Below, piece after piece: positions 1 through 60,876 of a DNA stretch of 64,000 bases. This DNA comes from a bacterium (GTDB lineage: Bacteria; Babelota; Babeliae; Babelales; RVW-14). The stretch spans positions 729,784-793,783 of the forward strand of contig CP064957.1 in assembly GCA_016699045.1 (NCBI GenBank), given 5' to 3'. The notes under the pieces were generated by a model. The model was not told the origin of the DNA. It saw only the letters and a list, made by a program, of their open reading frames with translations, and searched no databases. Numbering within the stretch: position 1 is the stretch's first letter; each line of letters starts with the position of its first letter. The position numbers and the translations under genes were made by a program.

Positions 1-1
1 C

Positions 2-175: not shown

Positions 176-232
176 TATAACGTCGTTATAACTGGTTCAT
201 CTTAAAATTAATTATTGAAGTAGGATCTATAC

Positions 233-925: not shown

Positions 926-954
926 ATAAGCATATAAGCAAAAGGAATTAAACC

Positions 955-1464: not shown

Positions 1465-1635
1465 ATAAAAAGCCTTTAAATCTGGGCTAAATACTTGTAT
1501 ATTGTCAATCTGTGTGATAACATAATTGTTATAATAACAGGGTTGAAATAATCAAAAAGTAGATTTTTGAGTAGATTTTGATTGTTGATTAAGTTTTTAT
1601 TAATAGTAATTCGTTAGTTGTTAGGGAGTTGTCTC

Positions 1636-2001: not shown

Positions 2002-2050
2002 CTCTTTGTTACTTTTTTTACTTTTTTTATTTAGTGCATTTTTGAGAATG

Positions 2051-2083
2051 CCCATTTTAAGCAATACGTTGTTTTAAAATGGG
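2051..2083 (+). terminator. Hairpin between rplL and rpoB (possible attenuator)
   Basis: Perfect 10-bp stem CCCATTTTAA (2051-2060) / TTAAAATGGG (2074-2083) with a 13-nt loop. The downstream T-run is weak, so at most a partial terminator. An attenuator at this position is known in E. coli. Confidence 0.35.
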
Positions 2084-2152
2084 ATTCTCTTGTCATTAGG
2101 CGTTTGTGTTCAGATAAGTTGCTAGTGCTTTTTTAGGGTTAGGAGCAATTGG

Positions 2153-6470
<4,318 letters not shown>

Positions 6471-6478
<8 letters not shown>

Positions 6479-10595: not shown

Positions 10596-10605
10596 ATAGG
10601 TTTGT

Positions 10606-10681
10606 AGGCACGTAGCTCAGTTGGTAGAGCATTGCTTTGACGTAGCAGAGGTCAGCGGTTCGATTCCGCTCGTGCCTACCA
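10606..10681 (+). tRNA. tRNA-Val (anticodon GAC), CCA encoded
   Basis: Hand-folded cloverleaf: acceptor AGGCACG/CGTGCCT, D arm GCTC-AGTTGGTA-GAGC, anticodon arm TTGCT-TTGACGT-AGCAG, T arm AGCGG-TTCGATT-CCGCT, discriminator A, then CCA. Confidence 0.9.
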
Positions 10682-10803
10682 TTTAAACGAGAGAAGTTGT
10701 TCTTGATTAAAATAGAAATAAACGATATTATAGATTTGTGTATTTTTAGAAGTTAAATTGACTATTTGTAATCAAAAAATAGTTTTTAGTTTGAGGTTCT
10801 TGA

Positions 10804-11070
10804 ATGTTAAATAAAGATGAAAAAAGTGCCATCATTACTCAATTTGCCAAATCAGCAAACGATACCGGCTCATCACAAGTACAAATAGCACTTCTCTCAA
10901 AGAGAATTAATCAGCTTTCTGAGCATTTACAAAAATTCCCTAAAGACAATCATTCTCGCAGAGGACTTCTGTGTATGCTTGGTCGTCGTAAAGCATTCCT
11001 TAAGTATTTGGAAAAAACTGATTTCAAAAGTTACAGCACTATTTCCCAATCTATGAAAGAAGTAGTTTAG
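10804..11070 (+). CDS. rpsO: 30S ribosomal protein S15
   Basis: 88 aa with an S15 signature (TGSSQVQIALLSKRINQLSEHL...KDNHSRRGLLCMLGRRKAFLKYL), upstream of pnp as in many bacteria. Confidence 0.95.
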   Translation: MLNKDEKSAIITQFAKSANDTGSSQVQIALLSKRINQLSEHLQKFPKDNHSRRGLLCMLGRRKAFLKYLEKTDFKSYSTISQSMKEVV

Positions 11071-11081
11071 ATCATTCTTGT

Positions 11082-11116
11082 CTTCATCCTATTTTATGGT
11101 GAAGTCTTTTCTTTTT
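11082..11116 (+). terminator. rpsO terminator / pnp leader hairpin
   Basis: 7-bp stem (11082-11088 with 11098-11104, one G-U pair), 9-nt loop, followed by TCTTTTCTTTTT (11105-11116). Confidence 0.5.
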
Positions 11117-11135
11117 ACTGAGAGGTACGATTATA

Positions 11136-43311: not shown

Positions 43312-44535
43312 TTGTTCAAAAACAGTACAAACAAATTAACAAAACTAACCTTCATGCTGACCAATGCCATCAATATTCTTTTTCGTATCGCGATCCCTTG
43401 CACCACGCTTGCTCTTGCATGGTACAGCCTCATTATAAAACCACGCCAGACCCTAAAACCAAATTTTTTGTTTTTCTTAATGGTAAGCTTGATAAGTGGT
43501 ATTTTTTTACAATCATGGTTCGCTCTTCCCTTGCCGCTGGTTGCGCTTGGTATCATTGCCAGCTCAATTGTCACACTATGCGTACAAGACATCCCACCCC
43601 TTGCATTATTAATGCCCGTTTTTTGTTTGGTAGGGGCATTTACATTTCAATATCAAAAAAATCATGCCGCCATGTTGCTCACATGTTACGGCAATCAACC
43701 AATAACGCTGTACGGCACCATCAGTAATAAAGAAGAATGTACCGGCATTTTTAAAGAACAATGGCGCTTAAGCGTTTCCGATCTTGAACTGCATAATGAA
43801 AAACAATCGACCTCATTTAATGTTTTGTGTTACAGCAAAAAAATTACTGATTTGTTACCAAGCGACCAAATAATTCTTCATAATGTTATACTTAAAACAT
43901 CGCACACAGCCTCAATGAGCGACAAGCCAACCTTTGCTGATTATCTCATGAAAGAAGATGCGCTCTCTTCGCTTTTTATCGATCATAAAACTTCGTACAC
44001 CCTGCAAAGTAGACCAATCTGGTCTTTTAATCGCTGGCTGTGGACTAAAAAAATGAATCTCTACCACGCCTGCAAACAAAAACTTTCGCACATCACGTTT
44101 ACGTATTTTTCGTTAATTTTTTTGGGCAACAAGTATTTTGCAAAATATGATTCACTGCGCGCCTTATTTAATCAGTGGGGCCTCGCACACTTTTTGGCAC
44201 GCTCTGGCTTACACATTGTACTTTTCATTTTTATGTGGACATTTTTACTGAACTTAATTCCGCTACCGCTGCAATGGAAACGAATTATCTTGCTATGCTG
44301 CTGTTTTTGTTATTGCATGCTCAGTTGGATTAGTATTTCTTTTATTCGCGCATTTCTTGTTTTTATACTCACACAACTGGGCGCCCTTTTAGCACGACCA
44401 ACACATTTTTTACATTTGCTTACTATTGCCTGCTTGCTCATTTTGTTGTTTAATCCGATACAACTTTTTTTTCTTGATTTCCAATTAACCTTTGGGCTAA
44501 CCTTTACCTTAGCGTTGCTTGCCCACACAATCTAG
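43312..44535 (+). CDS. ComEC/Rec2-family membrane protein (competence domain only)
   Basis: Polytopic membrane protein with FNQWGLAHFLARSGLHIVLFIF (cf. ComEC G..HLLAISGLH). No C-terminal metallo-beta-lactamase domain. Start codon uncertain. Confidence 0.55.
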   Translation: MFKNSTNKLTKLTFMLTNAINILFRIAIPCTTLALAWYSLIIKPRQTLKPNFLFFLMVSLISGIFLQSWFALPLPLVALGIIASSIVTLCVQDIPPLALLMPVFCLVGAFTFQYQKNHAAMLLTCYGNQPITLYGTISNKEECTGIFKEQWRLSVSDLELHNEKQSTSFNVLCYSKKITDLLPSDQIILHNVILKTSHTASMSDKPTFADYLMKEDALSSLFIDHKTSYTLQSRPIWSFNRWLWTKKMNLYHACKQKLSHITFTYFSLIFLGNKYFAKYDSLRALFNQWGLAHFLARSGLHIVLFIFMWTFLLNLIPLPLQWKRIILLCCCFCYCMLSWISISFIRAFLVFILTQLGALLARPTHFLHLLTIACLLILLFNPIQLFFLDFQLTFGLTFTLALLAHTI

Positions 44536-44581
44536 CTCTTCTTTTATGGCAAAAATTCTTGTCGTGGTTACCAGGATATCT

Positions 44582-46087
44582 ATGAAAACAAGAATAGATT
44601 CCACCATAAAAAAACTGTTTCTGCTTTTAGCTTTTTTAGTCATACCATCTGGCTGCACCCCCCAAACAACAACATTCAGTCTTATTCATCATTATCCTTA
44701 TTTAACTGCACTCAACACCTGGATCTGCAATCATATGCATGCTCTCATCCCACCAAGCATTATTACCAAAACAACAAAATCAAATGATGAAATTTTGCAG
44801 GAAACAAAAAAAATAAAAGATTGGAATATCATTGTTTATATGGCAGCCAACAACAATCTCCACATGTTTAGTATTAAAAATTTACAACAAATGATTCATA
44901 TTGGCTCAAACGAGCGCATTAATATTATTGTCCAGCTTGATGGCTATCGGATGGAAGATATCAGCAGATTTTATCTTGAAAAAGATAATCCAATCTTAAT
45001 TGATTCTTTTAATCATACCCAAGCTACCATTAGCGGCACCAGACAAAGCTTAGAAGAATTTGTAACCTGGGCAATCCAAACATACCCAGCCAAACACCAA
45101 GCACTTATTTTATGGAATCATGGCTCTGGTATTAAAGATCCTCGGCTGTGGGAAAAACGAATCATTGCTCATCGCGATGATTTTTTTTTCTTCAATCACC
45201 AGTTATGTCTTTTAGAACTCAATCGTCATCTTCTCGATAATAATTATGAAGATCAAAGCAATCGTGGCATTGCTTTTAATGACACCTTTGAAACATATAT
45301 TACCAACCAAGAACTAACCGAAACACTTGATACCTTAAGCACTAACATTCTCAATAATAAAAAAATTGATCTCTTATTTTTTGATGCCTGCCACATGGCC
45401 ATGATTGAAATTGGATCACAAATCAAAAGCGCTGTTTGTTATATGGTTGGCTCTGAAGAAATTGAGCCAGGCAACGGACATAATTATATGTACGCGCTAG
45501 AACCTTTTTTACACAAAAATCTGTCCCCATCAGAATTTGCCTGCCACTTAGTACATGCATACGAACAGGAATATATAAATTTTAATGCTGACTATACGCA
45601 ATCGGCCATTCATTTAGAATCTTATGAGCCACTCGAAGAACTGATGCAAAAAATCACATCCAACCTAAATTTTTTACTACAAAAAGAATCTACTATCATT
45701 ACTCAATTTATTCGATCTATCAGATTTAGTAGACGATATACCACCGAATTTGGCGACCCTGATTACATTGATTTTTGTTTGTTTTTTCAAAATTTAGAAA
45801 AAAAATTAATCTCATTACTGGGGAATGAAATAATTGCCAACATCACCATGACAACAATTGTCAAAACAATAGAACTTATTAATCAGTGCTTAGAGATTGC
45901 ACTCAAAAAAACCATTATCAAAAACACTTCTGGCTTTAACCTGCCGTATGCCCAAGGCCTTGCTATCTACTTTCCAAGACGATCAATAGACTCATATTAT
46001 CGCACTACCATTTTTGATCAAAAAACCCAGTGGTCAACTTTTTTAACAACATTCGCTCTCAATCTACAAAAATTAGGTGAAAGTTAA
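44582..46087 (+). CDS. Clostripain-like cysteine peptidase (family C11), possible lipoprotein, paralog 1
   Basis: WNIIVYMAANNNL, catalytic-His context LILWNHGSGI, catalytic-Cys context LLFFDACHMAMIE. Signal peptide ending IPSGC. ATG 44582 preferred over the ORF-track start at 44519. Confidence 0.7.
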   Translation: MKTRIDSTIKKLFLLLAFLVIPSGCTPQTTTFSLIHHYPYLTALNTWICNHMHALIPPSIITKTTKSNDEILQETKKIKDWNIIVYMAANNNLHMFSIKNLQQMIHIGSNERINIIVQLDGYRMEDISRFYLEKDNPILIDSFNHTQATISGTRQSLEEFVTWAIQTYPAKHQALILWNHGSGIKDPRLWEKRIIAHRDDFFFFNHQLCLLELNRHLLDNNYEDQSNRGIAFNDTFETYITNQELTETLDTLSTNILNNKKIDLLFFDACHMAMIEIGSQIKSAVCYMVGSEEIEPGNGHNYMYALEPFLHKNLSPSEFACHLVHAYEQEYINFNADYTQSAIHLESYEPLEELMQKITSNLNFLLQKESTIITQFIRSIRFSRRYTTEFGDPDYIDFCLFFQNLEKKLISLLGNEIIANITMTTIVKTIELINQCLEIALKKTIIKNTSGFNLPYAQGLAIYFPRRSIDSYYRTTIFDQKTQWSTFLTTFALNLQKLGES

Positions 46088-46092
46088 ATCGT

Positions 46093-47415
46093 ATGAAAAA
46101 AATACTTGGTATTTTCTTGTTATTAATTTCCCTAACTTCAAGCGAGTCACTACAATGCAGCGATATCCACACAACCTATGCATGTTTATCTCAAACTAAC
46201 GACCAAGAAGGAAGTCCACTGTGGTTGCATTTAGAAAGTATTGATGATCTTTCAGTTGTGATGGGACTTGTCATGCGTATTATTACCGAGCTGCCAGAGG
46301 TAGAAATTTTTATCACTACAACGCTCATCCAAACGAAAGAAATCATTAATTATCTTTTTCCCAAGCTACATGTGCATCTTATCTCTCAAGATAATTTACA
46401 AGCAATAGCAAGTTTATATGATCACTTACAACCAGGAGCCATCATTTTGGTTAAACACAACATAATACTGAGCCTGGCGCTTTTATCTTTTTTACACAAG
46501 ACGCCAATTTTTCTATTAAATGCTTCAGTATCACAAACAACTGAGCGGCTACTCTGTATGTCTCCGTATTTATATCAAGAGCTGTTTAATGCGCTTACCG
46601 GCATTTTTTGCTCACACGAAGAAGATCGACAAGCATTTGAAAAATTAGGCGTCAAGCAAACACACACAACCGTTTCAGGACCTGCACATTTGTATAATAT
46701 TTTTGCGAGAAGAAATTACTTCCTAAAAAAACTTAGACTCGAACCAAAAATATCCACTCCTATTTTTGATTATCCGGTTATTTTAATGCATACGTACAAC
46801 AAAAATAGGATCAAACTTTATCTTAACGCGTATGAAGAGTTACACAAAAAGATCCCCAATCTCAAACTTATTATATCAACGAGCTCGGTAACATCGTGGG
46901 AAAACGAGCTCACTACGTTTATAAAAAATAAAAATCTGAACGCACTTCTGTGGAACAAAAATATTGATCTATACGGCAAAAAATCACATTTTATTACCAA
47001 CTTAAAAAACATTTTTCAAGCGAATAATATCTTTATTTCCTGTTTTAGCGGCCCACTCTTTTTTTTAAACAACATTGTGCCAATTTTTGTATGTGATGAA
47101 GGTGCTGCCGCGGAAGAAATTTTCTTAATATTTCAAGCCGCCATTGCAAAAAACGCCATTGTTATAGGGCCTTGTGAAAAAATGGCTTACTTAAAACCCC
47201 TCAAAGACAATCATTTTTTCAATATTGTCGACTCAAAAAATGAGTTATGTACAACACTACTCAGTCTTTTATTTGATAAAGAATTTTTTATCAACAACAG
47301 GAAATCCTCATATAACTTTGCAAAAAAAATGGCTGCTGATGTTGCAATCATTTTCAATCCATTTTTTGAATTACTTAAGCAGTATCTTATAGAAAAAAGG
47401 AGGCTTGTTCAGTAA
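46093..47415 (+). CDS. Divergent WaaA/KdtA-like (Kdo transferase family) protein
   Basis: Collinear pattern with E. coli WaaA: LWLHLESIDD (cf. IMLHSVSVGE), IFITTT (ITVTTMT), PIFLLNASVS (IPLVIANARLS), IFCSHEEDRQAFEKLGV (IAAQNEEDGARFVALGA). Several conserved motifs are substituted. Confidence 0.4.
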   Translation: MKKILGIFLLLISLTSSESLQCSDIHTTYACLSQTNDQEGSPLWLHLESIDDLSVVMGLVMRIITELPEVEIFITTTLIQTKEIINYLFPKLHVHLISQDNLQAIASLYDHLQPGAIILVKHNIILSLALLSFLHKTPIFLLNASVSQTTERLLCMSPYLYQELFNALTGIFCSHEEDRQAFEKLGVKQTHTTVSGPAHLYNIFARRNYFLKKLRLEPKISTPIFDYPVILMHTYNKNRIKLYLNAYEELHKKIPNLKLIISTSSVTSWENELTTFIKNKNLNALLWNKNIDLYGKKSHFITNLKNIFQANNIFISCFSGPLFFLNNIVPIFVCDEGAAAEEIFLIFQAAIAKNAIVIGPCEKMAYLKPLKDNHFFNIVDSKNELCTTLLSLLFDKEFFINNRKSSYNFAKKMAADVAIIFNPFFELLKQYLIEKRRLVQ

Positions 47416-47485
47416 AAAAATTTTATAGTAAACATTCTCAATACTGACATAAGTATTCATTAATTTTTCAAAAGGAGTAATCGGA

Positions 47486-48901
47486 ATGAAGAAGTCATAT
47501 GTTTTTTTATGCATGCTGCTAGCAGCTTATTCATCAGAAGCAAAAACAGAAGTATTGAACGCACCACAAGACTCACCAAGTTTTACCGAAGGAAATGTAT
47601 CACCAGCTTCACGCGCACGCAAAGACTGGAATTTTATGGTCTACATGGCCGCCAACAATAACTTGCACACGTTTGCCATTGCCAATCTCATGCAAATGAT
47701 CTCTGTTGGCTCAACGCCTGATCTTAATATTTTGGTTCAATTGGATGAATACGGTAAGAGAGAAGTGAGTCGCTATTACATTGAAAAAAACAATCCCATC
47801 ACCGTTGCAACTTCTGATCACACACAAATTTCAACAAGTGGCACCAAGCAAAGTCTGTATGAATTTATGAAATGGAGCATTCAAAAGTTCCCCGCCAACA
47901 ATCATGCTATTGTTCTATGGAACCATGGATCCGGCATTAAAGACCCACACATTTGGGGCCGCACGTTAATGAAAAATCGCGATCAACTTTTTGCCTTCAA
48001 TGACAAAACAGGACTTCTCGAATTAAATCGTCATATCGCACGCTACCATCTGGACAAGTACGAAGAAGAACAACGATTTATTTCCTACACTTATGAAATC
48101 TTAAAAAGACGTGGCATTGCATTTAATGATACCTATGAAGAATATTTAACCAACCAAGACCTTACGATGGTTCTTGAAAAAGTTTCAAAAGAACTTCTTG
48201 GAAAAAAAATAGATCTTTTATTGATGGATGCCTGTCACATGGCCATGGTCGAAGTTGGTTCACAAGTAAAAAGTGCCGTTAATTACATGGCAGCATCAGA
48301 AGAAATAGAACCAGGCCCAGGATACAACTACTCGTTTCTTCTTGAACCATTCACGCATAACACACTGTCGCCACAAGAGTTTGCTTGCCAGGCGGTTAAA
48401 GCATATGCCCAACATTATAAAGGCATCAATGCGGATTTTACACAATCAGCTATCAATTTAAATGAGTTTGAAAAACTAGAAAAAAATATCAAAGACATCA
48501 CACTATTGATGACAAATGTTATTGACACTGAAACATCAATTGACTTTAAAGCGCTCTTGCAATCCATTCGCAAAAATAGACGCCATACCACCAGTTTTTG
48601 CGATTATGACTATATAGATTTTTGTCACTTTTATAAAAGCTTAAATGAAATAATTGCTATAAAATTACCAGACACAAAAGGTTCTACGCGCGAAAAACTT
48701 ATGAACATTCGTTTACTTGCTCTGCAAGGTTTAAGCATGATGCAAAATTATATTCTTATGAATGCGACAGGCATTAACTTGCCAAATGCTTTTGGTTTGT
48801 CATTTTACTTTCCAACGCGCCGCATGGACGATACCTACTTTAAAACAATTTTTGATCAACAAACAAAATGGTCTGAAATTTTACGACGTTATTTAAGCTA
48901 A
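47486..48901 (+). CDS. Clostripain-like cysteine peptidase (family C11), secreted, paralog 2
   Basis: AAGGAG SD and a signal peptide. WNFMVYMAANNNL, VLWNHGSGI, LLLMDACHMAMVE. Collinear with paralog 1. Confidence 0.7.
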   Translation: MKKSYVFLCMLLAAYSSEAKTEVLNAPQDSPSFTEGNVSPASRARKDWNFMVYMAANNNLHTFAIANLMQMISVGSTPDLNILVQLDEYGKREVSRYYIEKNNPITVATSDHTQISTSGTKQSLYEFMKWSIQKFPANNHAIVLWNHGSGIKDPHIWGRTLMKNRDQLFAFNDKTGLLELNRHIARYHLDKYEEEQRFISYTYEILKRRGIAFNDTYEEYLTNQDLTMVLEKVSKELLGKKIDLLLMDACHMAMVEVGSQVKSAVNYMAASEEIEPGPGYNYSFLLEPFTHNTLSPQEFACQAVKAYAQHYKGINADFTQSAINLNEFEKLEKNIKDITLLMTNVIDTETSIDFKALLQSIRKNRRHTTSFCDYDYIDFCHFYKSLNEIIAIKLPDTKGSTREKLMNIRLLALQGLSMMQNYILMNATGINLPNAFGLSFYFPTRRMDDTYFKTIFDQQTKWSEILRRYLS

Positions 48902-50391: not shown

Positions 50392-51456
50392 TTAATCGCG
50401 ACCAAGCCAGTCATTATGCATTTGCTGCGCAAGCACTTGGTCAGCCAACATGCTTCCAAAAAAAATATACTCGTTCCGCCGCGACCCACCAACACACTGC
50501 TGCCCATTTTTTAAGTTCGTCAGAGACTCTCCGGCAACATCTTGAAGAGTACTTATGCGAGTACTCAAGCTTTTATCACGACCAGTCGCTTCAATAAACG
50601 TATCATTGCCCGCATAAATACCAACATGCGCAATCGAAGCAACTGGATCTTCAGAGGACCCAAAAAATATTAAATCGCCCGGCTTTAAATCTTTACCATG
50701 CAAAACTGACTTACTAGTTTTAAACTGACTCACCGAATTGCGCGGTACTTGCAAACCAACCGATTGAAAAACAACATTAACTAAGCCAGAGCAGTCAATG
50801 CTGGTAATTTGATTATTCTTTGCCAGCGCATACGCACTGCGGCCACCCCACACATAAGGACTTCCAAGAAATTGCTTTGCCAAATCAACAACCGATTCTC
50901 TTAACTGTTCAGACGAGCCAACAAGAGCAGGTTGCACAAAAGAAATGTCAGATAAACGCATCAAGCCAACCTTGCCGACCGGCAAAATCACTTTGCACCA
51001 CTCATCGCTCACGCGCCGAGCTTTTAGCTTTGTCCCGCACGAAAGTAAAAACAATTTTTTATTTTTATAAACAACGGGAGCCCACAAAGAACGCACAACG
51101 CTTGTACAAGTCGGAAAAGATTCAACCGGCACCGCCTGATGATCCTGAATATAGCCAACCATGCTTGAAAACTTATTTTTATGCCAATTTTTTTGTTCAA
51201 GCAACTCTACGCGCAACCAGCCTGGCCTGTCAGGCTCAGCCAAAATACATTCTCCCATCAGAACTTGTGAAAGCTGCCCTTTCATCTTTTTAAATAGAGC
51301 AGGACCACGCAGGCCAGCAGGCGCTGCCTTTATTTCATTGCGCACATCTGCCACCGGCACACAAACAACCATTTTTTGCAGCCCTCCTGCCTGAATAACA
51401 GCAGTTGCCAAAAGCCATGCCCCTAGACCAGCTACACATCGTATTAAAATTTTCAT
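50392..51456 (-). CDS. NlpC/P60-family cell-wall peptidase with N-terminal SH3-like region
   Basis: Signal peptide, GSPYVWGGRS, IDCSGLVNVVF (Cys), GDLIFF, AHVGIY (His). Confidence 0.8.
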   Translation of the reverse strand: MKILIRCVAGLGAWLLATAVIQAGGLQKMVVCVPVADVRNEIKAAPAGLRGPALFKKMKGQLSQVLMGECILAEPDRPGWLRVELLEQKNWHKNKFSSMVGYIQDHQAVPVESFPTCTSVVRSLWAPVVYKNKKLFLLSCGTKLKARRVSDEWCKVILPVGKVGLMRLSDISFVQPALVGSSEQLRESVVDLAKQFLGSPYVWGGRSAYALAKNNQITSIDCSGLVNVVFQSVGLQVPRNSVSQFKTSKSVLHGKDLKPGDLIFFGSSEDPVASIAHVGIYAGNDTFIEATGRDKSLSTRISTLQDVAGESLTNLKNGQQCVGGSRRNEYIFFGSMLADQVLAQQMHNDWLGRD

Positions 51457-51606
51457 AAAACAGCCCCCTCATCATAAAACCCTACCCCGAATCTCACCAA
51501 AATCTTCTTTTATGATTTTACGATAATTAACAAATAAAAATAAACAATAGCGTAAATATTAGACAATAATAAAGCACTTACCGAGCTTTTCATTGACAAA
51601 TAGAGA

Positions 51607-51650
51607 TGTTGATAACTTGTTGATAACTTGTTGATAACTTGTTGATAACT
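51607..51650 (-). repeat. 4 x 11-bp perfect tandem repeat TGTTGATAACT (= 4 DnaA-box-like TTATCAACA on minus strand)
   Basis: Read directly: units at 51607, 51618, 51629 and 51640. A fifth TGTTGATAA lies at 51697-51705. Confidence 0.95.
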
Positions 51651-51829
51651 TTTATCTATTTTCCCAAAACATCGAGCCAGTCGACAAAAATAGCATTGTT
51701 GATAATTTTAATCGACCAGCACGCGTCAAAGTGCATGTATCTATATCAAAACGTAGAATAGATAAGTACTTTAAAAACCAATGCCAGAAAACATCGACTC
51801 ATAGGCACTATTCAGTGGCGACAAATAAG

Positions 51830-51860
51830 TTATCAACAAGTTATCAACAAGTTATCAACA
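51830..51860 (+). repeat. 3 x TTATCAACA at 11-bp spacing, inverted relative to the 51607-51650 array
   Basis: Boxes at 51830-51838, 51841-51849 and 51852-51860 (AGTTATCAACA x3). Confidence 0.95.
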
Positions 51861-51919
51861 TATTTTAAATCATAGAATTTAGTAGAATTCTAAAGGCTTT
51901 TTAGCAAAAATACTCTGAG

Positions 51920-51928
51920 TTATCCACA
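51920..51928 (+). promoter_or_regulatory. Perfect consensus DnaA box TTATCCACA
   Basis: gagTTATCCACAaaaa read directly. Followed at ~51945-51995 by a nearly pure A/T tract (ctatctaatatataatattaagatatatataaaaaattta). Confidence 0.7.
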
Positions 51929-52192
51929 AAAAATGGGCTGCTCATTATTACTATCTAATATATAATATTAAGATATATATAAAAAATTTACTTATGAACA
52001 AAGCCCCTCTTCTCATTTTTCCCAAAAATAAAAATTATTATGTTTCAAAAGAGTTATATTCTTTGTTCTTCACATTTAGGGGATTTTGCTTTAGACTGGG
52101 TTCTAAGTTGTCGATAGTGCATAACTTTCATATTAAACCAGTTTAAGTACTCAGCAATCAAAATTGCTATATCTACCTTAACAATCGAGGGC

Positions 52193-53293
52193 ATGGAAAC
52201 CGTGAATCTTGCAGATGTAATAGAAAATCTCGTTGAAGAGCGTGGTCTTGATCGGGATCAAATAGCCGCCATCGTTTGCGACGGTATTCAAACGGCATAT
52301 ACAAAAAAATATCCCTACGTTGATGTTTTGGTTACTTATAACAAAAAAACCGGTCTCGTAGAAATTTTGGCTGAAAAAGAAGTTGTAAATACGGTTGAAG
52401 ACCCTGATACCGAAATAACACTTCGTAGAGCCAAAATGGTTGATGCAAAAGCTGAACTTGGCTCACTTATTCATGTTCCATTCGAACAGGAAATTGGTCG
52501 CGTTGAAATTATTGCGGCCAAGCAAATCATTTCTGCAAAGATTCGGGAACTTGAGCATATGGCGGTTTACAATGAGTTTAAAGACCGTAAGGGCGCTATT
52601 ATTATTGGTGCTGTGCATAAACGTGAACGCGCAGGCATGGTAATAAAGATTGGCGAAATTATGGGCTTGTTGCCTAATGAAAACATTCCTATTGGCGAAA
52701 CAATTAAGGTAGGGCACCAAATTCGCGTTCTTGTACAAGACGTGCTTGTTGCGGCCAGGGGCGATTACCAAATTATTCTCGATCGCGCTTCGGCAGATTT
52801 TGTTAAGGGCCTTATCGAGCTTGAAATTCCTGAAGTTTATGAAGGAATTGTCGAAATAAGGAAAATTGTTCGAACTGCCGGTTATAAAACCAAGGCAATC
52901 GTTGCTTCGACTAGCAAAGACATTGATCCTGTGGGAACGTGTGTTGGCGTTGGTGGTGCGCGTATTAAGCCTATTTTGCGGGAGCTCGGGCAAGAAAAAG
53001 TTGATTTGATTGAGGCAACCGACGATCTTGACGATTTAGTAAAAGATAGTCTTAAGCCTGCAGATATCGACAAAGTAGAGGTAAATGAGCAATCAAGTGT
53101 AGCAATGGTTTGGCTGGCTCAAGATCAGCGATCGCTGGCCATTGGAAAACTTGGACAAAATATAACCTTGGCGTCTAAGTTGACTGGTTTGGAAATTCAC
53201 CTGCAAGATATACAACCGCCGCGTGGCCACGAAGAAGGCTTTATTGACCGACCTTTTGAGCACAAAGACGAGAATGACGGCACGGAAGACTAA
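52193..53293 (+). CDS. nusA: Transcription termination/antitermination factor NusA (no C-terminal AR repeats)
   Basis: 366 aa with S1 and two KH domains (VASTSKDIDPVGTCVGVGGARIKPI, AIGKLGQNITLASKLTG). nusA-infB synteny. Confidence 0.93.
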   Translation: METVNLADVIENLVEERGLDRDQIAAIVCDGIQTAYTKKYPYVDVLVTYNKKTGLVEILAEKEVVNTVEDPDTEITLRRAKMVDAKAELGSLIHVPFEQEIGRVEIIAAKQIISAKIRELEHMAVYNEFKDRKGAIIIGAVHKRERAGMVIKIGEIMGLLPNENIPIGETIKVGHQIRVLVQDVLVAARGDYQIILDRASADFVKGLIELEIPEVYEGIVEIRKIVRTAGYKTKAIVASTSKDIDPVGTCVGVGGARIKPILRELGQEKVDLIEATDDLDDLVKDSLKPADIDKVEVNEQSSVAMVWLAQDQRSLAIGKLGQNITLASKLTGLEIHLQDIQPPRGHEEGFIDRPFEHKDENDGTED

Positions 53294-53365
53294 TTGTTGC
53301 CCGAGACAGCACTTTTTTGTTGCCGGTAAAAATTTAATGTTAAAAAAAGATAGGTGAGCAGTAAC

Positions 53366-54553
53366 ATGCGTGTATATGAGATTGCAAAAGAACTCGATAT
53401 TTCAAGCAAGGAACTGGTAGTCTTTTTGAAAAATGAGGGATCGCCTGTCTCAAATCACATGTCGATGCTAACAGAAAAAGACATTGAGCTTGTCAAAAAG
53501 ACTTTTGGGAAAAAGACGCCAAAGCTTGCCGAAGTAAAAATTGTGGCTGAAAAAAAGCCAACACCTGAAAAAAAATCGACTTCTGTCAAAAAAACTCTTA
53601 CTCAGAAAAAAGAACCTGATTTAAAGGTTGCAGAGCCAGAAAAGAAGACGATAGTACACAGCAAAACGGTCGAAAAAAAACAACAACCAGGCGAAACGGC
53701 GCAAAAAAAAGACGTTGAAATAGCTACGAGGAATGTTGCTTCTGCACAACCAAAACAAGAAACAACCTCTTCTAATCAGATAAAGGGTCCCACAATCGCT
53801 GCACCAATTAATCAAAAAACACCTGTTCGTTCTTTAGTTCCTGAAGAAGAGGACGTAAGATTTTTAGATATTTCGACCAAGCAAGCTACAAGTAGTATGA
53901 CGTTTGATCGCTCTAAAGGATCTCGTGGCGTTAACACTCAACAAAACACAGGCTCACGGTCGAGTAGACGCCAACATCACCGTCGTCGTGCGGCGCGAGC
54001 TGCTGTTGAACAACAGCAACATAGTGCACCGATTACTGACGTTGTGTTGTCAAAAAGCTTGCCTCTTTTCGAAGTTGCGCAATTGATGGGTAAGTCTGAT
54101 GGCGAGCTTATCTTGGCCTTGTTAAAGCGTGGCATGGTCTGCAATCGCAACAATGTTCTTTCAACAGACGTTATCGAATCTCTGGCTGCACAATTTGGTA
54201 TTCAAACATCCGTTGCAGCGCCAGCTCCCGACAAAAATGTCGAAAGCATTCAAGCAAAAATTAAACAAACTGAAGATGGCATTCAGCGTTGGCCGGTTGT
54301 TGTGGTGATGGGACACGTTGACCACGGCAAGACAACGTTATTAGACTTTATTCGTAAAATGAATGTTGCGGCTCGTGAAAAAGGTGGCATTACGCAACAC
54401 ATTAGTGCTTATGAAGTTAATAGCAAGCATGGCAAGATTGTGTTTTTGGACACGCCTGGGCACGAAGCTTTTTCTTATTTGAGACAAAAAGGCGCTCGAA
54501 TTACTGATATTGCTGTTTTGGTGGTAGCAGCTGATGACGGCGTTAAGTTATAA
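53366..54553 (+). CDS. infB: Translation initiation factor IF-2, N-terminal part (N-domain, G1-G3), ending at an in-frame TAA
   Basis: [18 protein letters not shown]..., G1 [13 protein letters not shown]3 DTPGH, then AADDGVKL followed by TAA at 54551-54553. Confidence 0.85.
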
Positions 54554-54562
54554 ACAGTTGAA

Positions 54563-55777
54563 GTGATTAAATATGCACGTCAAACCAACGTAACTATTAT
54601 TATTGCTATTAACAAGATGGACAAGGTTGCGCCAGCAGCGGTGGAAACTGTTAAGCGTCAACTTGCGCAGCATGACTTGTTGGTAGAAGATTGGGGCGGC
54701 AATATTATTTGCGTGCCGATCTCTGGTAAAACAGGACAGGGTGTTGCCGAGCTTCTTGAAATGATTGTTCTTCAATCACAAATGATGGAACTTAAAGCAT
54801 TCCCTGACAGACCTGCGCAAGCGTTTGTTTTGGAGTCGCGTTTAGAAAAGGGCTTTGGTCCAGTTGCTTCTGTTATTTGTACCGAAGGTACGCTTAAACA
54901 AGGCGATTATTTTGTGTGCGGCAACAGCAGTGGCAAGATTCGTTTGTTGGTAGATTCCGGCGGCCAAAAAGTAAAAGAAGCTGGGCCTTCAATGCCAGTA
55001 CAAGTTGTTGGTTTTAATGAATTTGCTTCATCGGGCGAATGGCTGCAAGTTGTTTCTGCGCATGATTACAACCAAGCTCGTGCTGGTAAAACCGTTCAAG
55101 CTCCGTTGTCTACAACCGCACAAGCAATGCAACAAGAACTTTCTCTTGCTTCTCGTGAAGTGTCTCAGCGATCAATGAATCTTTTAATCAAAGTTGATAC
55201 GCAAGGTTCTAAAGAAGCGCTGATGGGCTTGTTGAAAAAATTAACTGATCTTTCTCGAGAAGTTCAATGCCCGCTGAACATAGTTTATGTTGGCGTTGGC
55301 GATATTTCTGAAAGTGACGTTGACTTGGCCGCTAATACTCATTCGATGATTATTGGTTTCCACATAAAAGCTGAAAAAAATTCACAGATGGCAGCCAAAG
55401 AACAAGTCGTTGAAATTAAACTTTTCGATGTGATTTATCATTTGGTTGAATATTTGCAAGAACAAATTGAGAAAAAGCGTATTGTTGAAGCAGTATGGAA
55501 ACAAGTTGGTGAAGCAGTTGTGCGTAAAGTTTTTGTAACAAAAACAGGAACAATTGCTGGTTGCTACTTGCGCGAAGGGCTTTGTTCTCGCGACAACAAG
55601 TTCCAATGTATTCGTGGCTCCAAGGTCGTAGCTGAAGGAAAAATTAATAGCTTGCAGCGCGATCGTAAAGTAGTTAAAGAAGTGCATGCGGGTTATGAAT
55701 TTGCCTTTATTGCGGACTCTTTCCAAGATTGGCAAGAAGATGACGTGGTCTTGTATTTGGCCAAAGTAAAAGGGTAA
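54563..55777 (+). CDS. infB: Translation initiation factor IF-2, C-terminal part (G4 onward), same frame as the upstream part
   Basis: Frame is continuous from 54554. G4 AINKMDK, domain II and C-terminal domains (LIKVDTQGSKEAL, VGVGDISESDV, IIGFHIK). GTG 54563 is only the first possible restart. Confidence 0.8.
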   Translation: MIKYARQTNVTIIIAINKMDKVAPAAVETVKRQLAQHDLLVEDWGGNIICVPISGKTGQGVAELLEMIVLQSQMMELKAFPDRPAQAFVLESRLEKGFGPVASVICTEGTLKQGDYFVCGNSSGKIRLLVDSGGQKVKEAGPSMPVQVVGFNEFASSGEWLQVVSAHDYNQARAGKTVQAPLSTTAQAMQQELSLASREVSQRSMNLLIKVDTQGSKEALMGLLKKLTDLSREVQCPLNIVYVGVGDISESDVDLAANTHSMIIGFHIKAEKNSQMAAKEQVVEIKLFDVIYHLVEYLQEQIEKKRIVEAVWKQVGEAVVRKVFVTKTGTIAGCYLREGLCSRDNKFQCIRGSKVVAEGKINSLQRDRKVVKEVHAGYEFAFIADSFQDWQEDDVVLYLAKVKG

Positions 55778-55797
55778 TACCTTTTTGGTTGTAGCTT

Positions 55798-56925
55798 ATG
55801 CGCACCATGCTTGAACGTATTTGGGATAAAACAAGCTCGCTCCAGCAGTTAACGTTTTTTGAAAAAATACTCTTTTGTAGTTTATGCCTGCTCGAACCTT
55901 TATATCGGGCAGGTTTTTTTATTGTCAAGTTTTATCGTAAAAAAACGGGTGGTACAAGGGTGCCTTTTTCAGTGTTGTCGATTGGAAATCTTTCGGTTGG
56001 TGGGACTGGCAAATCAGTAGTAGTTTCTTTTTTGGGAAATCTTTTAGCAAGCCGAGCGCCAGCAATTGTGCTTCGTGGTTATGGTGGGCGTGCTGCGCAC
56101 GACGGTACTAATATACTGGTCAGCGATGGAAAAAATATTTTATGTGATGTGGCAACAAGTGGCGACGAAGCATGTATGTTTGCACAATCGTTTTGTGGAC
56201 CGGTGGTTGTTGGTGCAGACCGCTTGCGCTCGTGCCAACTGCTTGAAGCGTGGTCACGCAAAACAGATAATGCTGTAAAGACCATTATTCTTGATGATGC
56301 GTACCAAAATTACAAAATTTTCAAAAACGTTGAAATTTTGCTGTTAGATGCGCGCAAACCATTCGATAATGGACATACGTTGCCGGCTGGCAGATTGCGC
56401 GAAAAAAACTATCGTCGTGCGCATTTTTTTTTCCTCATGCATGCAGACCAGGTTTCTCCAGCTTTTTTACAATTTATCACCACGAATTTATTGATTGGCG
56501 TGGATGAAAAATTTATTTTTGCAGGCAAGCATGCGTATGCTGGTATTTTTTTACATAATGCTGGTGTTGATCAAACGAAAAATCTTCGCTATCGATTGTG
56601 CATGATTGTTGCTGGTATTGGTTCGCCGAGTGGCTTTGAACGCACGGTTGCTGATGCGGATCTTATTTCTTGTGCTTCATTTATTTTTCCAGATCATCAT
56701 GATTATTCATGTGCTGATCTTGAAAAAATTGAACAGTATGCGCAAGAAAAAGATTGTTTTATTGCGGTGACGACTGCAAAAGATTGGGTTAAGTTGCAGC
56801 CTATCGTGCAAAAAATATCCAGTAAAATTCAGTGGTATGTTATTCGCGTTACGTTTGATTTTTTGCAAACGCATGATCATCAGCGTTTTTTCACTCTTTT
56901 AACAAATCTTTTAGACCATTCTTAA
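55798..56925 (+). CDS. lpxK: Tetraacyldisaccharide 4'-kinase
   Basis: VLSIGNLSVGGTGKSVVV P-loop context and ILDDAYQ motif, 375 aa. Confidence 0.85.
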   Translation: MRTMLERIWDKTSSLQQLTFFEKILFCSLCLLEPLYRAGFFIVKFYRKKTGGTRVPFSVLSIGNLSVGGTGKSVVVSFLGNLLASRAPAIVLRGYGGRAAHDGTNILVSDGKNILCDVATSGDEACMFAQSFCGPVVVGADRLRSCQLLEAWSRKTDNAVKTIILDDAYQNYKIFKNVEILLLDARKPFDNGHTLPAGRLREKNYRRAHFFFLMHADQVSPAFLQFITTNLLIGVDEKFIFAGKHAYAGIFLHNAGVDQTKNLRYRLCMIVAGIGSPSGFERTVADADLISCASFIFPDHHDYSCADLEKIEQYAQEKDCFIAVTTAKDWVKLQPIVQKISSKIQWYVIRVTFDFLQTHDHQRFFTLLTNLLDHS

Positions 56926-57008
56926 ATGTTGTTTGAGTTTTTACCATAAAGATATTATCCTTTTTTAAAAAGAGCAGGGTGGTATGAAACGTTAAGGAGA
57001 GATGGTTT

Positions 57009-58106
57009 ATGATGCTGGTCATGAGGCATGTTTTTTCATTTCTTTTTTCATTTTTAGTTGCCTTTTATTTGTTACCTCTTATTGCGCAAGCAGCTCGTCG
57101 GCTGCGTTTTTTAGATGAGCCAAATGGTACTATTAAAGTTCATAAAGCGCCGGTTCCCTATCTTGGCGGGCTGGCGGTATACATTCCGTTTGTTGCAACA
57201 CTCAGTCTTGTTTATCCTTTTGAAACTATTATTGTCTGGCTTTTGCTCGGCATCAGTTTGTTGTTACTGGTTGGCCTAATTGATGATTTTAAAGTATTGA
57301 AACCAGGACAAAAACTCTTTGGTCAAATTATTGCTGTGCTTTGTTTTTTGAAAGGCGGCTTGTCGCTTAAAACCGTGTTTTTTTCGTCAGGGCTCAATAT
57401 TTTTATCGCTGGCTTTTGGATGCTTTCTGTTATTAACGCATTTAACCTTGTTGATGTCATGGATGGCCTTTCGTCGCTTATTGCCATGGTTGCTGCCGTA
57501 TCGTTTTTCTTTGTTGCATTATTTTTTAAACAATATGCCTATAGCATTTTGTTGCTCGCTTTTTTGGGGCCGCTATTTGCTTTCTTTTTGCACAATAAGC
57601 CACCTGCAAAAATTTATTTGGGCGATGCGGGATCTATGTTTATTGGTGGTTTTTTGGCGGCGATGCCACTGCTGTTTCCGTGGAGCTATCAATTTTTAGA
57701 TGCGTACTACGTTCCGGCAATTATTTTAGGTATTCCATTGTTGGAAGTTTCTTGTTTGGTGATCATTCGAACATGGCTTGGGATTCCATTTTTTCGCGGC
57801 AGCCCCCATCATTTTTGTATTTATTTGATTAAAAAAGGATGGAGCAAAGAGCAGGTTCTGTTGTTTACCGGCTTTATGGGAAGTATTTTATCGGCTTGCG
57901 CGCTGCTCTTTTTGAGTAAAATAATAACGTTGCCACTGCTTGTTTGCGCAGGGGTTCTTTTTTTAGGGGCGTGGACTTTTATTATTTTTTCTCCGGCGTT
58001 ATTTCGTATTCAGCCTGAAGACCTTGAGCCAAAAAGTATTATTGGCGCCAAGCGAGTAGCCATGAATCAGTCGACAATTTCAGAGCGCCACGAGCAGGTC
58101 AAATAG
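57009..58106 (+). CDS. Glycosyltransferase family 4 polyprenyl-phosphate sugar-1-phosphate transferase (WecA-like)
   Basis: FLDEPNGTIKVHKAPVPYLGG, LIDDF, INAFNLVDVMDGLS, about 10 TM segments. Confidence 0.75.
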   Translation: MMLVMRHVFSFLFSFLVAFYLLPLIAQAARRLRFLDEPNGTIKVHKAPVPYLGGLAVYIPFVATLSLVYPFETIIVWLLLGISLLLLVGLIDDFKVLKPGQKLFGQIIAVLCFLKGGLSLKTVFFSSGLNIFIAGFWMLSVINAFNLVDVMDGLSSLIAMVAAVSFFFVALFFKQYAYSILLLAFLGPLFAFFLHNKPPAKIYLGDAGSMFIGGFLAAMPLLFPWSYQFLDAYYVPAIILGIPLLEVSCLVIIRTWLGIPFFRGSPHHFCIYLIKKGWSKEQVLLFTGFMGSILSACALLFLSKIITLPLLVCAGVLFLGAWTFIIFSPALFRIQPEDLEPKSIIGAKRVAMNQSTISERHEQVK

Positions 58107-58108
58107 TT

Positions 58109-58951
58109 TTACACAAAACTCTTGAGCGTTGCTATTTCGTCAGCATATTTTTCAGGATTTGGTGTTTCAAGAACTTTTGGCACGTGTATCAATCGATCAT
58201 CGTGCATAATTTTTTTGAACGTAGTCAGTGGAATTTCTCCTTCGCCCAAACTTGCATGGCGATCCTTTTTTGAACCGCATGGCATTTTAGAATCGTTGAG
58301 ATGCAACGCTTTGAGGCGACGAATGCCAATGGTTTTACAAAAATCGTCCATCATAGTTTCATAACCGTGTGGCGTGCTGATATCATGACCAGCAGCAAAA
58401 ACATGGCACGTATCTAGACATACACCAATTCTGCTGTTGTCTTCAATCTGCTCAATAATACTTTTGAGGTGTGTAAAAGTGCCAATATTGGTCCCCTGCC
58501 CCGCCATGGTTTCCAACAAAATCATTGAGTCCCCAGGAACTCTGTCTAAGATTGTTTTTAAATTTTGAGTGATATGTGCAATACCAATTTCTTCACCAGC
58601 GCCGGTGTGTGAGCCTGGATGCAGTACTAAATAAGGAATCTCTAAATCTTGGCAACGTTGTAGTTCTTTAGTCAGCGACGTAACTGATTTATGACGAACA
58701 TCAGTATTGCTTGCCGCCAAATTAATTAAATAAGAACTATGGACCATGATTTTTGTAAGCCCTGATTCTTTTACCGCTGCTTTGAATGCGTCAATCTCAT
58801 CGTGCTTGAGCGCGGGCGCAAACCAGCTTCTGTTACTTTTGGTAAAAATTTGCATGGTAGTGCAGCCAATTTCAAGAGCACGTTCAGCTGATTTGTAAAG
58901 GCCGCCTGCTGCCGAAATATGAGCACCAATCAACGTTTTATTATGAGGCAT
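58109..58951 (-). CDS. nfo: Endonuclease IV
   Basis: IGAHISAAGGL, MQIFTKSNRSW, LVLHPGSH, CLDTCHVFAAG, LHLNDS. Confidence 0.93.
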   Translation of the reverse strand: MPHNKTLIGAHISAAGGLYKSAERALEIGCTTMQIFTKSNRSWFAPALKHDEIDAFKAAVKESGLTKIMVHSSYLINLAASNTDVRHKSVTSLTKELQRCQDLEIPYLVLHPGSHTGAGEEIGIAHITQNLKTILDRVPGDSMILLETMAGQGTNIGTFTHLKSIIEQIEDNSRIGVCLDTCHVFAAGHDISTPHGYETMMDDFCKTIGIRRLKALHLNDSKMPCGSKKDRHASLGEGEIPLTTFKKIMHDDRLIHVPKVLETPNPEKYADEIATLKSFV

Positions 58952-59061
58952 GGGAGTCCTTTCTGGTTATCAGATTTTTACCTTAAAATAATTATGCATG
59001 AGAAGTGTTGATTTTGCATTATACTATTTTTTTATTAATTATATATTTTAGGGGTTTGGTC

Positions 59062-60876
59062 ATGAATTATCACGGCAGATTAGCGGTAAAGAGTTTTTGT
59101 TTGGTGTTTGTTTTGTTGCCGGCATTAATGATGCCTTTTGCTTGCGTGGCAGATGATTCGATTATTACTTTTTTTGAGCAACGTGATCTAGAGCTTTCTG
59201 GGTCGCTTAATCAATCACATCGAGGTGTTGTTGCCAAGCTTGGTAACCCTCAAACAATGTTTGGGCGGGATTGTATTGCGCATTTTTTTACCAACCCCAC
59301 GGCGGATGTGAGAGTTATTGAAGAGCGTCAAATCGCCATTCAAGAACTCTTTGAGAATCAAGAACTTTTGCATAATGTAACGCATTTGTTAAAGCAGCTA
59401 AAAGCGTATCAATACGGTGTAGATTTTTTTTTACATAAAAGCCTCGACGTGGCCGCCGAAGAAATTTTGAAGACTTATTATTTTTCATTATCAATGATGC
59501 GTTCGTACAATGATAGTGCTTTGGCTTTAACATTGCGCGATATTTTTAAAAAATTTGGTTTATTTATGCCGGTGATAGAACATCTTCTTTTTCACTTTGC
59601 TATGGATTATATTTATCAGGTAATCGCTGAAGATAAAAAAACTGATGGGCATTGTCATCATCATGACCATCAGCATAAACACCACCATCATGGCTGCGAT
59701 GGGCACTCGTGTGTTATGGACCATCTTGAACCAGCAGAAGGTGCAAGTACAGCTGTTAAAGGTTTGTTTTTAACCTTAAAAATTGGGCATTTTGGTCTTC
59801 ATGCGATCAGTATTTATGAAATGATTAGTTATGTTAAAGCACAAGTTGCGGTACTTGATTATGTGCATGATCAAGTAATTGCCGTGCAACAGTGCTTTGC
59901 AACGGTTGAGAAGCTTTCTAGTTTAGTTCAACGCAATGAAGTTCTTGCGCGCGTTTTTCCCGATATGTCAATGTTATTAAAAGAGCATAAAATCATGCCA
60001 GAATTGAGTGAGTTGTTTGTTAGTGGTGCCTTTGAACTTGATGATGAGCTTGGTTTTTTTTCTACCGTTGGGCCAACGTTGCGAGCTTACCGGTTGCTGC
60101 GTGAACAGCGAGATTCTTTTAAAAATGTTTGGCAGGCAGTTGGGCAGCTTGATGCGTACGCAACTCTAGCGCAGGTGATGCGTGAACATCAACATGGTGA
60201 TGCGCGCATGAGTTTTGTGCGCTTCAAAAAAGATGCAACGACGCCTTCGTTGATTATGAAAGGCTTATGGAATATCATGCTCAATCCCGACATGGTTACA
60301 ACTAACGATGTTGAACTTGGTGTAAATAATGCGCCGACTATCATGGTGATTACTGGGCCCAATAAAGCGGGAAAATCGAGCACATTGAAAGCGCTGGGGT
60401 TGAATGTTATTTTAGCCCAATCGTTTGGGATTGTTTGTGCTCGTGATGTCGAAATGACACCATTTGATGCGCTTATGACATACATAACGGTGACTGATGA
60501 TATCACGTGCGATACATCGTTGATGGTGGCAGAGTTGGCGCGCGCAGACGGTTGTTTAAAAAAAATTCAAGAATTAGAGCCAAATAAGTTTGGTTGTATT
60601 TTAATTGATGATTCATTATTTAAAGGTACGACATTTCAAAAACGAGAAGAGTTGGCGTATCAATTTGTAGAAGCAGTAGGCAGACCAGGTAATACGTGCG
60701 GCATGGTAGCAACCCACACCATGGCGTTGACGCAGTTGGCGCAGGTTGCTCAACAGACATTTTTTAATGCTTACATTCCAACTGTGCTAGCGCTTGATGG
60801 TAATGTGACGAGCACATTTACCGTGGTGCCCGGTATCGCTAACCCTGACGATGTTTTAGCGCTTGTGCGTGCTTAG
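59062..60876 (+). CDS. MutS-related ATPase (domains III-V-like) with hydrophobic N-terminus and His/Cys-rich loop
   Basis: Walker A ITGPNKAGKSSTLKALG, Walker B ILIDDSLFKGT, ATHT. N-terminus LAVKSFCLVFVLLPALMMPFACVA. DGHCHHHDHQHKHHHHGCDGHSC at 59644-59712. ATG 59062 preferred over the ORF-track start at 59005. Confidence 0.65.
   Translation: MNYHGRLAVKSFCLVFVLLPALMMPFACVADDSIITFFEQRDLELSGSLNQSHRGVVAKLGNPQTMFGRDCIAHFFTNPTADVRVIEERQIAIQELFENQELLHNVTHLLKQLKAYQYGVDFFLHKSLDVAAEEILKTYYFSLSMMRSYNDSALALTLRDIFKKFGLFMPVIEHLLFHFAMDYIYQVIAEDKKTDGHCHHHDHQHKHHHHGCDGHSCVMDHLEPAEGASTAVKGLFLTLKIGHFGLHAISIYEMISYVKAQVAVLDYVHDQVIAVQQCFATVEKLSSLVQRNEVLARVFPDMSMLLKEHKIMPELSELFVSGAFELDDELGFFSTVGPTLRAYRLLREQRDSFKNVWQAVGQLDAYATLAQVMREHQHGDARMSFVRFKKDATTPSLIMKGLWNIMLNPDMVTTNDVELGVNNAPTIMVITGPNKAGKSSTLKALGLNVILAQSFGIVCARDVEMTPFDALMTYITVTDDITCDTSLMVAELARADGCLKKIQELEPNKFGCILIDDSLFKGTTFQKREELAYQFVEAVGRPGNTCGMVATHTMALTQLAQVAQQTFFNAYIPTVLALDGNVTSTFTVVPGIANPDDVLALVRA

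Follow-up and report, generated by a model that had tools for sequence, protein, structure and literature searches.

What is a dense cluster of DnaA-box-like repeats doing directly upstream of nusA, in a chromosomal region that carries neither dnaA nor dnaN? The question is raised by a 64-kb stretch of contig CP064957.1 (the "window" hereafter) from a bacterium of the candidate phylum Dependentiae (TM6, Babeliales), a large and almost uncultured phylum of intracellular parasites. Here, a 736-bp gap separates a minus-strand NlpC/P60 peptidase gene on the left (50392–51456) from plus-strand nusA on the right (ATG 52193; probably GTG 52202), and the element under study lies in this gap (51607–51995). 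A first-pass annotation of the window had proposed an oriC-like element at this position, and the proposal gains support from a switch in strand composition at the gap, from the same layout in 14 other loci, and from a module of DnaA box, 13-bp spacer, DnaA-trio and A+T-rich DNA. Judging from these sequence features, we consider it about 90% probable that this Dependentiae bacterium starts replicating its chromosome here, the gap being its oriC. Its parts are those of a standard DnaA-dependent origin, unusually regular and in a gene context that has not been reported.

The gap contains the following elements, listed by coordinate in the window and by strand:

51607–51650, minus strand: left (distal) array of four tandem TTATCAACA boxes with an 11-bp period (9-mer + 2 bp), pointing away from the unwinding element
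51697–51705, minus strand: isolated fifth TTATCAACA box in the inter-array spacer, reading TGTTGATAA on the top strand
51830, 51841 and 51852 (box starts) to 51860, plus strand: right (proximal) array of three tandem TTATCAACA boxes, 11-bp period, facing the unwinding element
51861–51919, no strand: spacer between the right array and the anchor box, conserved in length and not in sequence
51920–51928, plus strand: anchor box of the putative unwinding module, a perfect consensus DnaA box (TTATCCACA) and the sole perfect box in the 64 kb
51929–51941, no strand: 13-bp spacer AAAAATGGGCTGC between anchor box and triplets, G+C-rich in its 3' part
51942–51953, minus strand: DnaA-trio-like triplets, top strand TCA TTA TTA CTA, bottom strand 3'-AGT AAT AAT GAT-5'
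51942–51995, no strand: putative A+T-rich DNA unwinding element, 91% A+T
52069–52097, plus strand: probable nusA promoter TTCACA-17-TAGACT (consensus match only), directed away from the unwinding element

The boxes, the two arrays, the perfect box and the A+T-rich tracts had all been placed correctly in the first-pass annotation, which had missed the G+C-rich 13-bp spacer and the DnaA-trio-like triplets lying between the perfect box and the A+T tract. On the top strand, the left array consists of four perfect tandem TGTTGATAACT units. The only RNA family found in an Rfam scan of the window was a tRNA-Val, with none inside the gap, and a 50-codon open reading frame at 51994–52146 falls in sequence that aligns poorly among relatives (alignment A1, nine sequences). 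A second A+T-rich tract occupies the left end of the gap (~51500–51560). There, positions 51553–51572 form a 20-nt inverted match (85%) to the start of the unwinding element (51945–51964). We treat this match as chance in A+T-rich DNA, and reject the idea of a second, mirrored unwinding module on the left side of the distal array, because the match is not conserved even in L001, the closest relative, and its distance to the nearest box is 34 bp instead of 13 bp.

The box cluster stands far above chance. In the window, TTATCAACA occurs 13 times where 1.17 occurrences would be expected, a count that none of 100 shuffles reached. Eight of the 13 copies sit within the gap, so that within the window the repeat is not one dispersed over many intergenic regions, an outcome that the first-pass annotation had named as fatal to its proposal. 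Likewise, nine of the window's 20 sites with at most one mismatch to TTATCCACA are packed into 322 bp, where ~0.09 would be expected (scaled from the shuffle mean of 17.3 such sites per 64 kb). The A+T-rich tract that adjoins the boxes at 51942–51995 is just as exceptional: positions 51945–51994 are both the most A+T-rich 50-mer of the window (0.92) and the least stable one (dG -43.7, the next being -49.9).

The anchor box, spacer, triplets and A+T-rich tract together match the basal unwinding system (BUS) of bacterial origins, which is defined by a DnaA box with ≤2 mismatches, a spacer of ≤16 bp and ≥3 NAN triplets with the consensus 3'-GAT-5' (PMC8287927); 13 bp is the commonest spacer among BUS predictions (PMC8287927). 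In the window, the perfect box at 51920–51928 lies 13 bp from the triplets, and at least three consecutive NAN triplets follow on the strand that runs 3' to 5' away from the box, an orientation that we checked against E. coli R1. Three of the four triplets agree with the trio consensus 3'-(G/A)AT-5' (bottom strand 3'-AAT AAT GAT-5' at 51945–51953).

If replication starts in this gap, strand composition should change sign there. The first-pass annotation had suggested reading the cumulative skew as a check; over the extent at hand, i.e., 64 kb of the window replicon and ≤21 kb for each related locus, the switch falls exactly at the gap. The cumulative G–C minimum of the window is located at 52186, and raw GC skew (2-kb) changes from -0.24 to +0.09 at 51–53 kb. 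Third-codon-position GC skew, taken on the plus strand, gives a sharper picture: of the 36 genes between 233 and 51456, all but one have negative values (35 of 36), and all nine genes from 52193 to 63886 have positive ones, with a sign that is independent of gene strand. The same negative-to-positive flip occurs just upstream of nusA in 8/8 related genome loci, in raw and third-position skew alike; pooling these loci, 52 of 57 genes to the left have negative third-position skew and 53 of 58 to the right have positive skew. The gap thus coincides locally with a strand-composition switch. Since the flip is shared by genomes that have diverged far beyond synonymous saturation, it reflects a long-standing divergence of replication direction at the nusA gap. 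As a side observation, with an origin at 51.9 kb the highly expressed plus-strand genes rplA-rpoB-rpoC-pnp would be transcribed head-on to the leftward fork, as would most genes between 18 and 49 kb.

Could the boxes instead form a cluster without any role in initiation, i.e., a titrating or recycling locus comparable to E. coli datA/DARS or the B. subtilis clusters, or a DnaA operator for nusA-infB and the divergent peptidase gene? Such a role would suit boxes in a promoter-containing gap between divergent genes with no dnaA or dnaN nearby. A role of DnaA as a transcription factor at such clusters is known, e.g., from the oriCII/gidA region of P. aeruginosa (PMC13438810), and arrays without unwinding modules exist in other sequences. 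Nevertheless, we regard this explanation as unlikely. The boxes coincide with the switch in third-position skew, both in the window and in each of the eight genome loci; they adjoin a full module of box, 13-bp spacer, triplets and A+T-rich DNA in the correct orientation, which sets the gap apart from a datA/DARS-type locus; and the least stable DNA of the window lies here. Regulation of nusA could, moreover, coexist with origin function.

The origin reading is further strengthened by comparison among relatives, in which both position and architecture are conserved. The layout recurs upstream of nusA in 14 further Dependentiae loci, whose NusA identity to that of the window ranges from 47 to 92%. 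Eight are genome loci (L001–L007 and L020) retrieved through a NusA anchor from a genome collection (L001–L059), and six are metagenome contigs (L078, L089, L103, L118, L173 and L179) retrieved independently through a three-box pattern; with the window, this makes 15 loci. It was the NusA-anchored loci that assigned the window to the Dependentiae. The closest relative, L001, shares 92% NusA identity with the window, and the other seven genome loci, one of them a complete 1.09-Mb chromosome, share 53–66%. The order of elements is the same throughout: minus-strand array, plus-strand array, anchor box, 12–14 bp spacer, CTA/TTA triplets and A+T-rich tract.

The left array of the related loci comprises four or five minus-strand boxes with an 11–12 bp period, and the right array three to five plus-strand boxes. 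The arrays are 190 bp apart in the window and L001, ~80 bp more than the 107–120 bp of the other loci; both carry the extra fifth box, which is conserved in L001 only (9504–9512). The start of the anchor box follows that of the last array box by 66–68 bp (~6 × 11) in 13 of the 15 loci, without conservation of the sequence in between. This constant spacer may hold the site of a bending (architectural) protein, or may simply reflect phasing. In alignment A1, the invariant columns lie almost all in boxes and triplets, those of the left array being invariant, and the anchor-box context AGTTATC(C/A)AC(A/C)A is nearly so.

Spacer, triplets and A+T content of the anchor-box module were measured by script in 13 related loci, and the spacer of the window and L001 by eye. 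The spacer from anchor box to triplets spans 12–14 bp in the 13 loci (13 bp in nine of them) and 13 bp in the window and L001, with a G+C-rich end. The relatives' triplets keep the same register, reading CTA TTA TTA TTA (bottom 3'-GAT AAT AAT AAT-5'), or CTA five times over in L004 (bottom GAT five times). Fitting triplets, as counted by the script, number four or five in 11 of the 13 loci and three in L118, L173 and L179. The 50 bp after the spacer are 78–96% A+T in the 13 loci. A promoter-like block then follows the A+T-rich DNA, with a CTTCAC(T/A)TTT block at a position similar to that of the window promoter in most relatives, and nusA begins ~180–330 bp from the anchor box.

Some shorter words recur beside the arrays. 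A CAAATAG(A)-like motif was seen by eye just outside the distal array, in either orientation, in the window (51594–51606), L001, L003, L005, L103 and L118; it reads TTGACAAATAGAGA in the window and CTCTATTTGTC in L005. Short words containing TCGA or CGATC are repeated in the inter-array spacers, the window having AAAACATCGA twice, at 51666 and 51788. Both kinds of word could be sites for additional factors, or chance matches.

The related loci also bear on what the repeats are. The box found at a given array position is TTATCAACA in the window, L001 and L003, TTATCCACA in most loci and TTATCCACC throughout L020, and the arrays of L004 and L005 alternate strictly between CCACA and CAACA in a 22-bp unit. 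Within the window itself, the perfect box and the repeats have common flanks (AGTTATCCACAA versus AGTTATCAACAA). Because TTATCAACA is replaced by TTATCCACA or TTATCCACC at equivalent positions, the repeats are best read as interchangeable DnaA-box variants of one recognition site, rather than as iterons or an operator. TTATCAACA departs from TT(A/T)TNCACA by one mismatch, at position 6, and may for this reason bind DnaA more weakly than the consensus. The arrays are uniform within each genome and different between genomes, a homogenization that would imply concerted evolution of the repeats, possibly together with DnaA.

This interchange of TTATCAACA and TTATCCACA disfavors the alternative offered in the first-pass annotation, namely that the arrays are iterons or an operator of a protein other than DnaA, e.g., the remnant of an integrated plasmid or phage replicon. 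The idea draws on the perfect tandem copies, as often seen in iterons, on a repeat that is one position off the strict consensus TT(A/T)TNCACA, and on the frequency of similar tandem arrays in phage contigs. The three-box pattern matched at least 120 metagenome contigs and at least 120 viral contigs; in the latter, i.e., ≥120 phage contigs from IMG/VR (L182–L301) with a G+C content of 0.30–0.67, we found three to six tandem GT(G/T)GATAAC boxes with an 11-bp period, for example at:

L202, 7294–7336
L189, 12851–12881
L229, 6374–6476
L199, 4125–4177

In the loci checked, these phage arrays are intergenic and lie next to terminase or portal genes. They could represent a host-DnaA-dependent phage origin, a DnaA decoy or a packaging signal, and we found nothing relevant in the literature on DnaA-box arrays in phages. 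Unlike the arrays of the window, however, they run in one direction only, 119 of 120 lack triplets and an unwinding element, and they have no chromosomal skew context. Nor does the neighborhood of the gap resemble that of plasmid or phage iterons: no replication-initiator, integrase or phage gene occurs near it, and the flanks are core chromosomal genes (nusA, infB, lpxK, peptidase genes, udg and waaA). Since all 15 loci, down to 47% NusA identity, keep the element next to nusA, and most of those genomes have repeats that match the consensus DnaA box exactly, we give the iteron explanation very little credence.

Least credible of all is that the skew switch marks the edge of a recent inversion (13 kb to 51.5 kb) within one replication arm, with boxes unrelated to initiation, a reading that we rejected: raw skew is positive at 1–13 kb, negative at 13–51.5 kb and positive after 52 kb, as an inverted block would give, but third-position skew is negative throughout 2153–51456 with no real switch at 13 kb, and a recent inversion cannot explain a flip present in 8/8 genome loci diverged well past synonymous saturation.

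Several observations nonetheless weigh against placing the origin in this gap. Raw GC skew, which is noisy here, is positive at 1–13 kb (1–13226, rplA-rpoB-rpoC-pnp). Because third-position skew is negative there (rpoB -0.21, rpoC -0.11, pnp -0.18), the positive raw skew comes from codon positions 1 and 2 of a small number of large, conserved genes (rpoB, rpoC and pnp). In L003, the two leftmost genes have positive third-position skew. The skew of the window was seen on 64 kb of the replicon alone, and the global minimum could sit elsewhere. Within the unwinding module, the first triplet of the window (TCA; bottom AGT) is off the trio consensus, and it is degenerate in L001 as well. Tandem DnaA-box arrays are not specific to origins, as the ≥120 phage contigs illustrate, and because arrays with an 11-bp period are common elsewhere, phages included, arrays alone would not prove an origin. 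Finally, the origin of Babela massiliensis has been placed by GC skew 152 nt upstream of dnaA (PMC4378268), unlike the element described here, which is not beside dnaA; because of this, either the nusA position is not universal in the phylum, or one of the two predictions is wrong.

Taking the gap as the origin, its parts suggest how initiation would proceed. DnaA would occupy the anchor box (51920–51928) and both opposed arrays, where the 11-bp period would bring neighboring DnaA molecules into contact and allow two opposed filaments to form, the proximal one being directed, together with the anchor box, at the unwinding element. From the anchor box, ATP-DnaA would extend over the 13-bp spacer onto the bottom-strand triplets at 51942–51953; the 91% A+T element (51942–51995) would then open, helicase would be loaded there, and two forks would depart in opposite directions, giving rise to the strand-composition switch. 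The distal array would correspond in function to the second (Right) subcomplex of DnaA at E. coli oriC, and transcription of nusA away from the element may assist opening. The binding of DnaA, the formation of filaments, the place of unwinding and any roles of nusA transcription or of a bending protein are all inferred from the arrangement of these sites.

The two genes that border the gap are as follows:

52202–53293, plus strand: nusA (ATG alternative at 52193), with Pfam NusA_N, KH and S1 matches, followed by infB and lpxK
50392–51456, minus strand: NlpC/P60 peptidase gene (Pfam match), the left neighbor in the window and L001

The likely true start of nusA is GTG 52202 rather than ATG 52193, as the alignment has GTGAATCT in every relative. 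The genes left of the gap include rplA, rpoB, rpoC, pnp, mreB, tpiA, secretin genes, gltX, eno, waaA and a uracil-DNA glycosylase gene, and to the right nusA, infB, lpxK and a glycosyltransferase gene. While nusA adjoins the element in 15/15 loci, the left neighbor varies, so only the nusA side is conserved and the NlpC/P60 gene is outside the conserved origin context. In L005 and L006, for instance, the putative origin is abutted on the left by a plus-strand gene instead of NlpC/P60, which we take, by eye from its C-terminal sequence, to be a uracil-DNA glycosylase gene. Adjacency to dnaA or dnaN, typical of origins without defining them, was not found: the first-pass annotation had reported neither gene in the window, and tblastn searches with E. 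coli DnaA and DnaN queries likewise detected no homologue in the window or in L001–L059. As controls, NusA gave 60 matches, and DnaA itself was picked up in other contigs, at 40% identity, by the same query.

Two further peculiarities were noted in this neighborhood. First, infB (53354–55777) is split by an in-frame TAA at 54551–54553 (...DDGVKL*TVEVIKYA...) into two open reading frames in the same frame (53354–54553 and 54563–55777), and is intact in the closest relatives (818–829 codons). Because the stop occupies what we take to be a conserved Gln position of IF2 proteins, a CAA to TAA change is suggested; the stop could come from an error in sequencing or assembly, be a variant within the population, or mark a pseudogene. 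Second, the closest relatives (L303/L304, 1049–6757) carry two successive plus-strand copies of a pair made of a Kdo-transferase-like gene (Glycos_transf_N) and a clostripain-family C11 peptidase gene, and the window has the gene order C11, Glycos_transf_N, C11 at 44519–48901. Such duplicated pairing a few kb from the putative origin is unusual.

An origin in the nusA gap would be a comparatively supported one for the Dependentiae, where the literature that we found gives only one-sentence predictions based on skew. It would set the zero point wherever growth is estimated from replication signals in metagenome coverage, help in assembling and orienting Dependentiae genomes, and be one more documented origin that lies apart from dnaA. 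The clean layout, with perfect repeats, constant phasing and a textbook unwinding module, and its natural variants in 15 genomes would also make a convenient in vitro substrate for examining how box spacing, orientation and affinity affect DnaA filament assembly and unwinding. Beyond this, we tentatively propose, with somewhat less than even confidence, that a broad clade of Dependentiae has fixed its origin at the nusA promoter region rather than at dnaA/dnaN, in the form of a stripped-down, near-perfectly regular version of the E. coli two-filament design, with opposed arrays in 11-bp register and an anchor box 6 × 11 bp from the proximal array. If this is true, the clade would offer a natural series of affinity variants for DnaA filament studies, and, with the unwinding element placed just ahead of the nusA-infB promoter, initiation might be linked to the transcription of an operon related to growth.

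How does this element compare with known origins? Within the phylum, the origin of Chromulinavorax destructans was inferred at 651641–652233 from GC skew and a TTATCCACA box (PMC6561590), and this 593-bp region is near in size to the 600–740 bp gaps described here. Arrays, an unwinding module or a nusA context are described in neither PMC6561590 nor PMC4378268, and we came across no account of them elsewhere in the literature. The BUS of Bacillus subtilis shares with the window its box, a 13-bp spacer with a G+C-rich end, at least three 3'-(G/A)AT-5' triplets and A+T-rich DNA. It differs in having a tandem pair of boxes (#6/#7) where a single anchor box is found here, with two boxes in L007 and L089 only, and the module here adjoins nusA instead of lying in the dnaA-dnaN gap.

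The same grammar also occurs in the canonical context, between dnaA and dnaN, in three metagenome contigs from bacteria of other kinds:

L160, 8667–8860
L154, 2881–3028
L074, 1873–1926

These gaps resemble the window: their tandem arrays are opposed (5–9 + 3 boxes in L154 and L160), and after ~50 bp come an AGTTATCCACAA anchor, CTA triplets and A+T-rich DNA. They hold up to nine perfect tandem DnaA boxes opposed to a three-box array. They differ, besides their gene context, in that their arrays are 17 bp apart rather than 107–190 bp, and in a second, degenerate box in the spacer.

E. coli oriC offers the closest parallel in overall design, with some clear differences. The array sites in the window are identical to one another, with 0–1 mismatch, whereas those of E. 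coli are heterogeneous, with ≥2 mismatches; judged from these mismatches, the sites here would not count as low-affinity ones that are filled from flanking high-affinity boxes. No distinct high-affinity box was found on the outer side of the distal array, the place that R4 takes in E. coli, and by eye the window gap contains no GATC clusters, unlike E. coli oriC. The neighbors are nusA and a peptidase or udg gene, as opposed to mnmG (gidA) and mioC. The constant 66–68 bp spacing may hint at an IHF-type site between anchor box and proximal array.

The likenesses concern the core of the design. As in E. coli, the origin is not adjacent to dnaA. On its reverse strand, E. coli oriC reads TTATCCACA (R1), then 13 bp, then CTA ATA AGA leading into the 13-mers, so that in both origins the anchor box lies 13 bp from CTA-type triplets with the same polarity. 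The E. coli arrays are described, in PMC6070618 and in the title of its Rozgaja 2011 reference (for their opposition), as clusters of four sites 2 bp apart that form two oppositely oriented arrays. The first-pass annotation had drawn this parallel, and it holds in the window, where 9-mers spaced by 2 bp give an 11-bp period in both arrays, on opposite strands. In the E. coli sequence, the R1 side is turned toward the unwinding element, with R2 and R4 in the reverse orientation; here, too, the proximal array and the anchor box face the unwinding element, the Dependentiae element being the mirror image of E. coli oriC.

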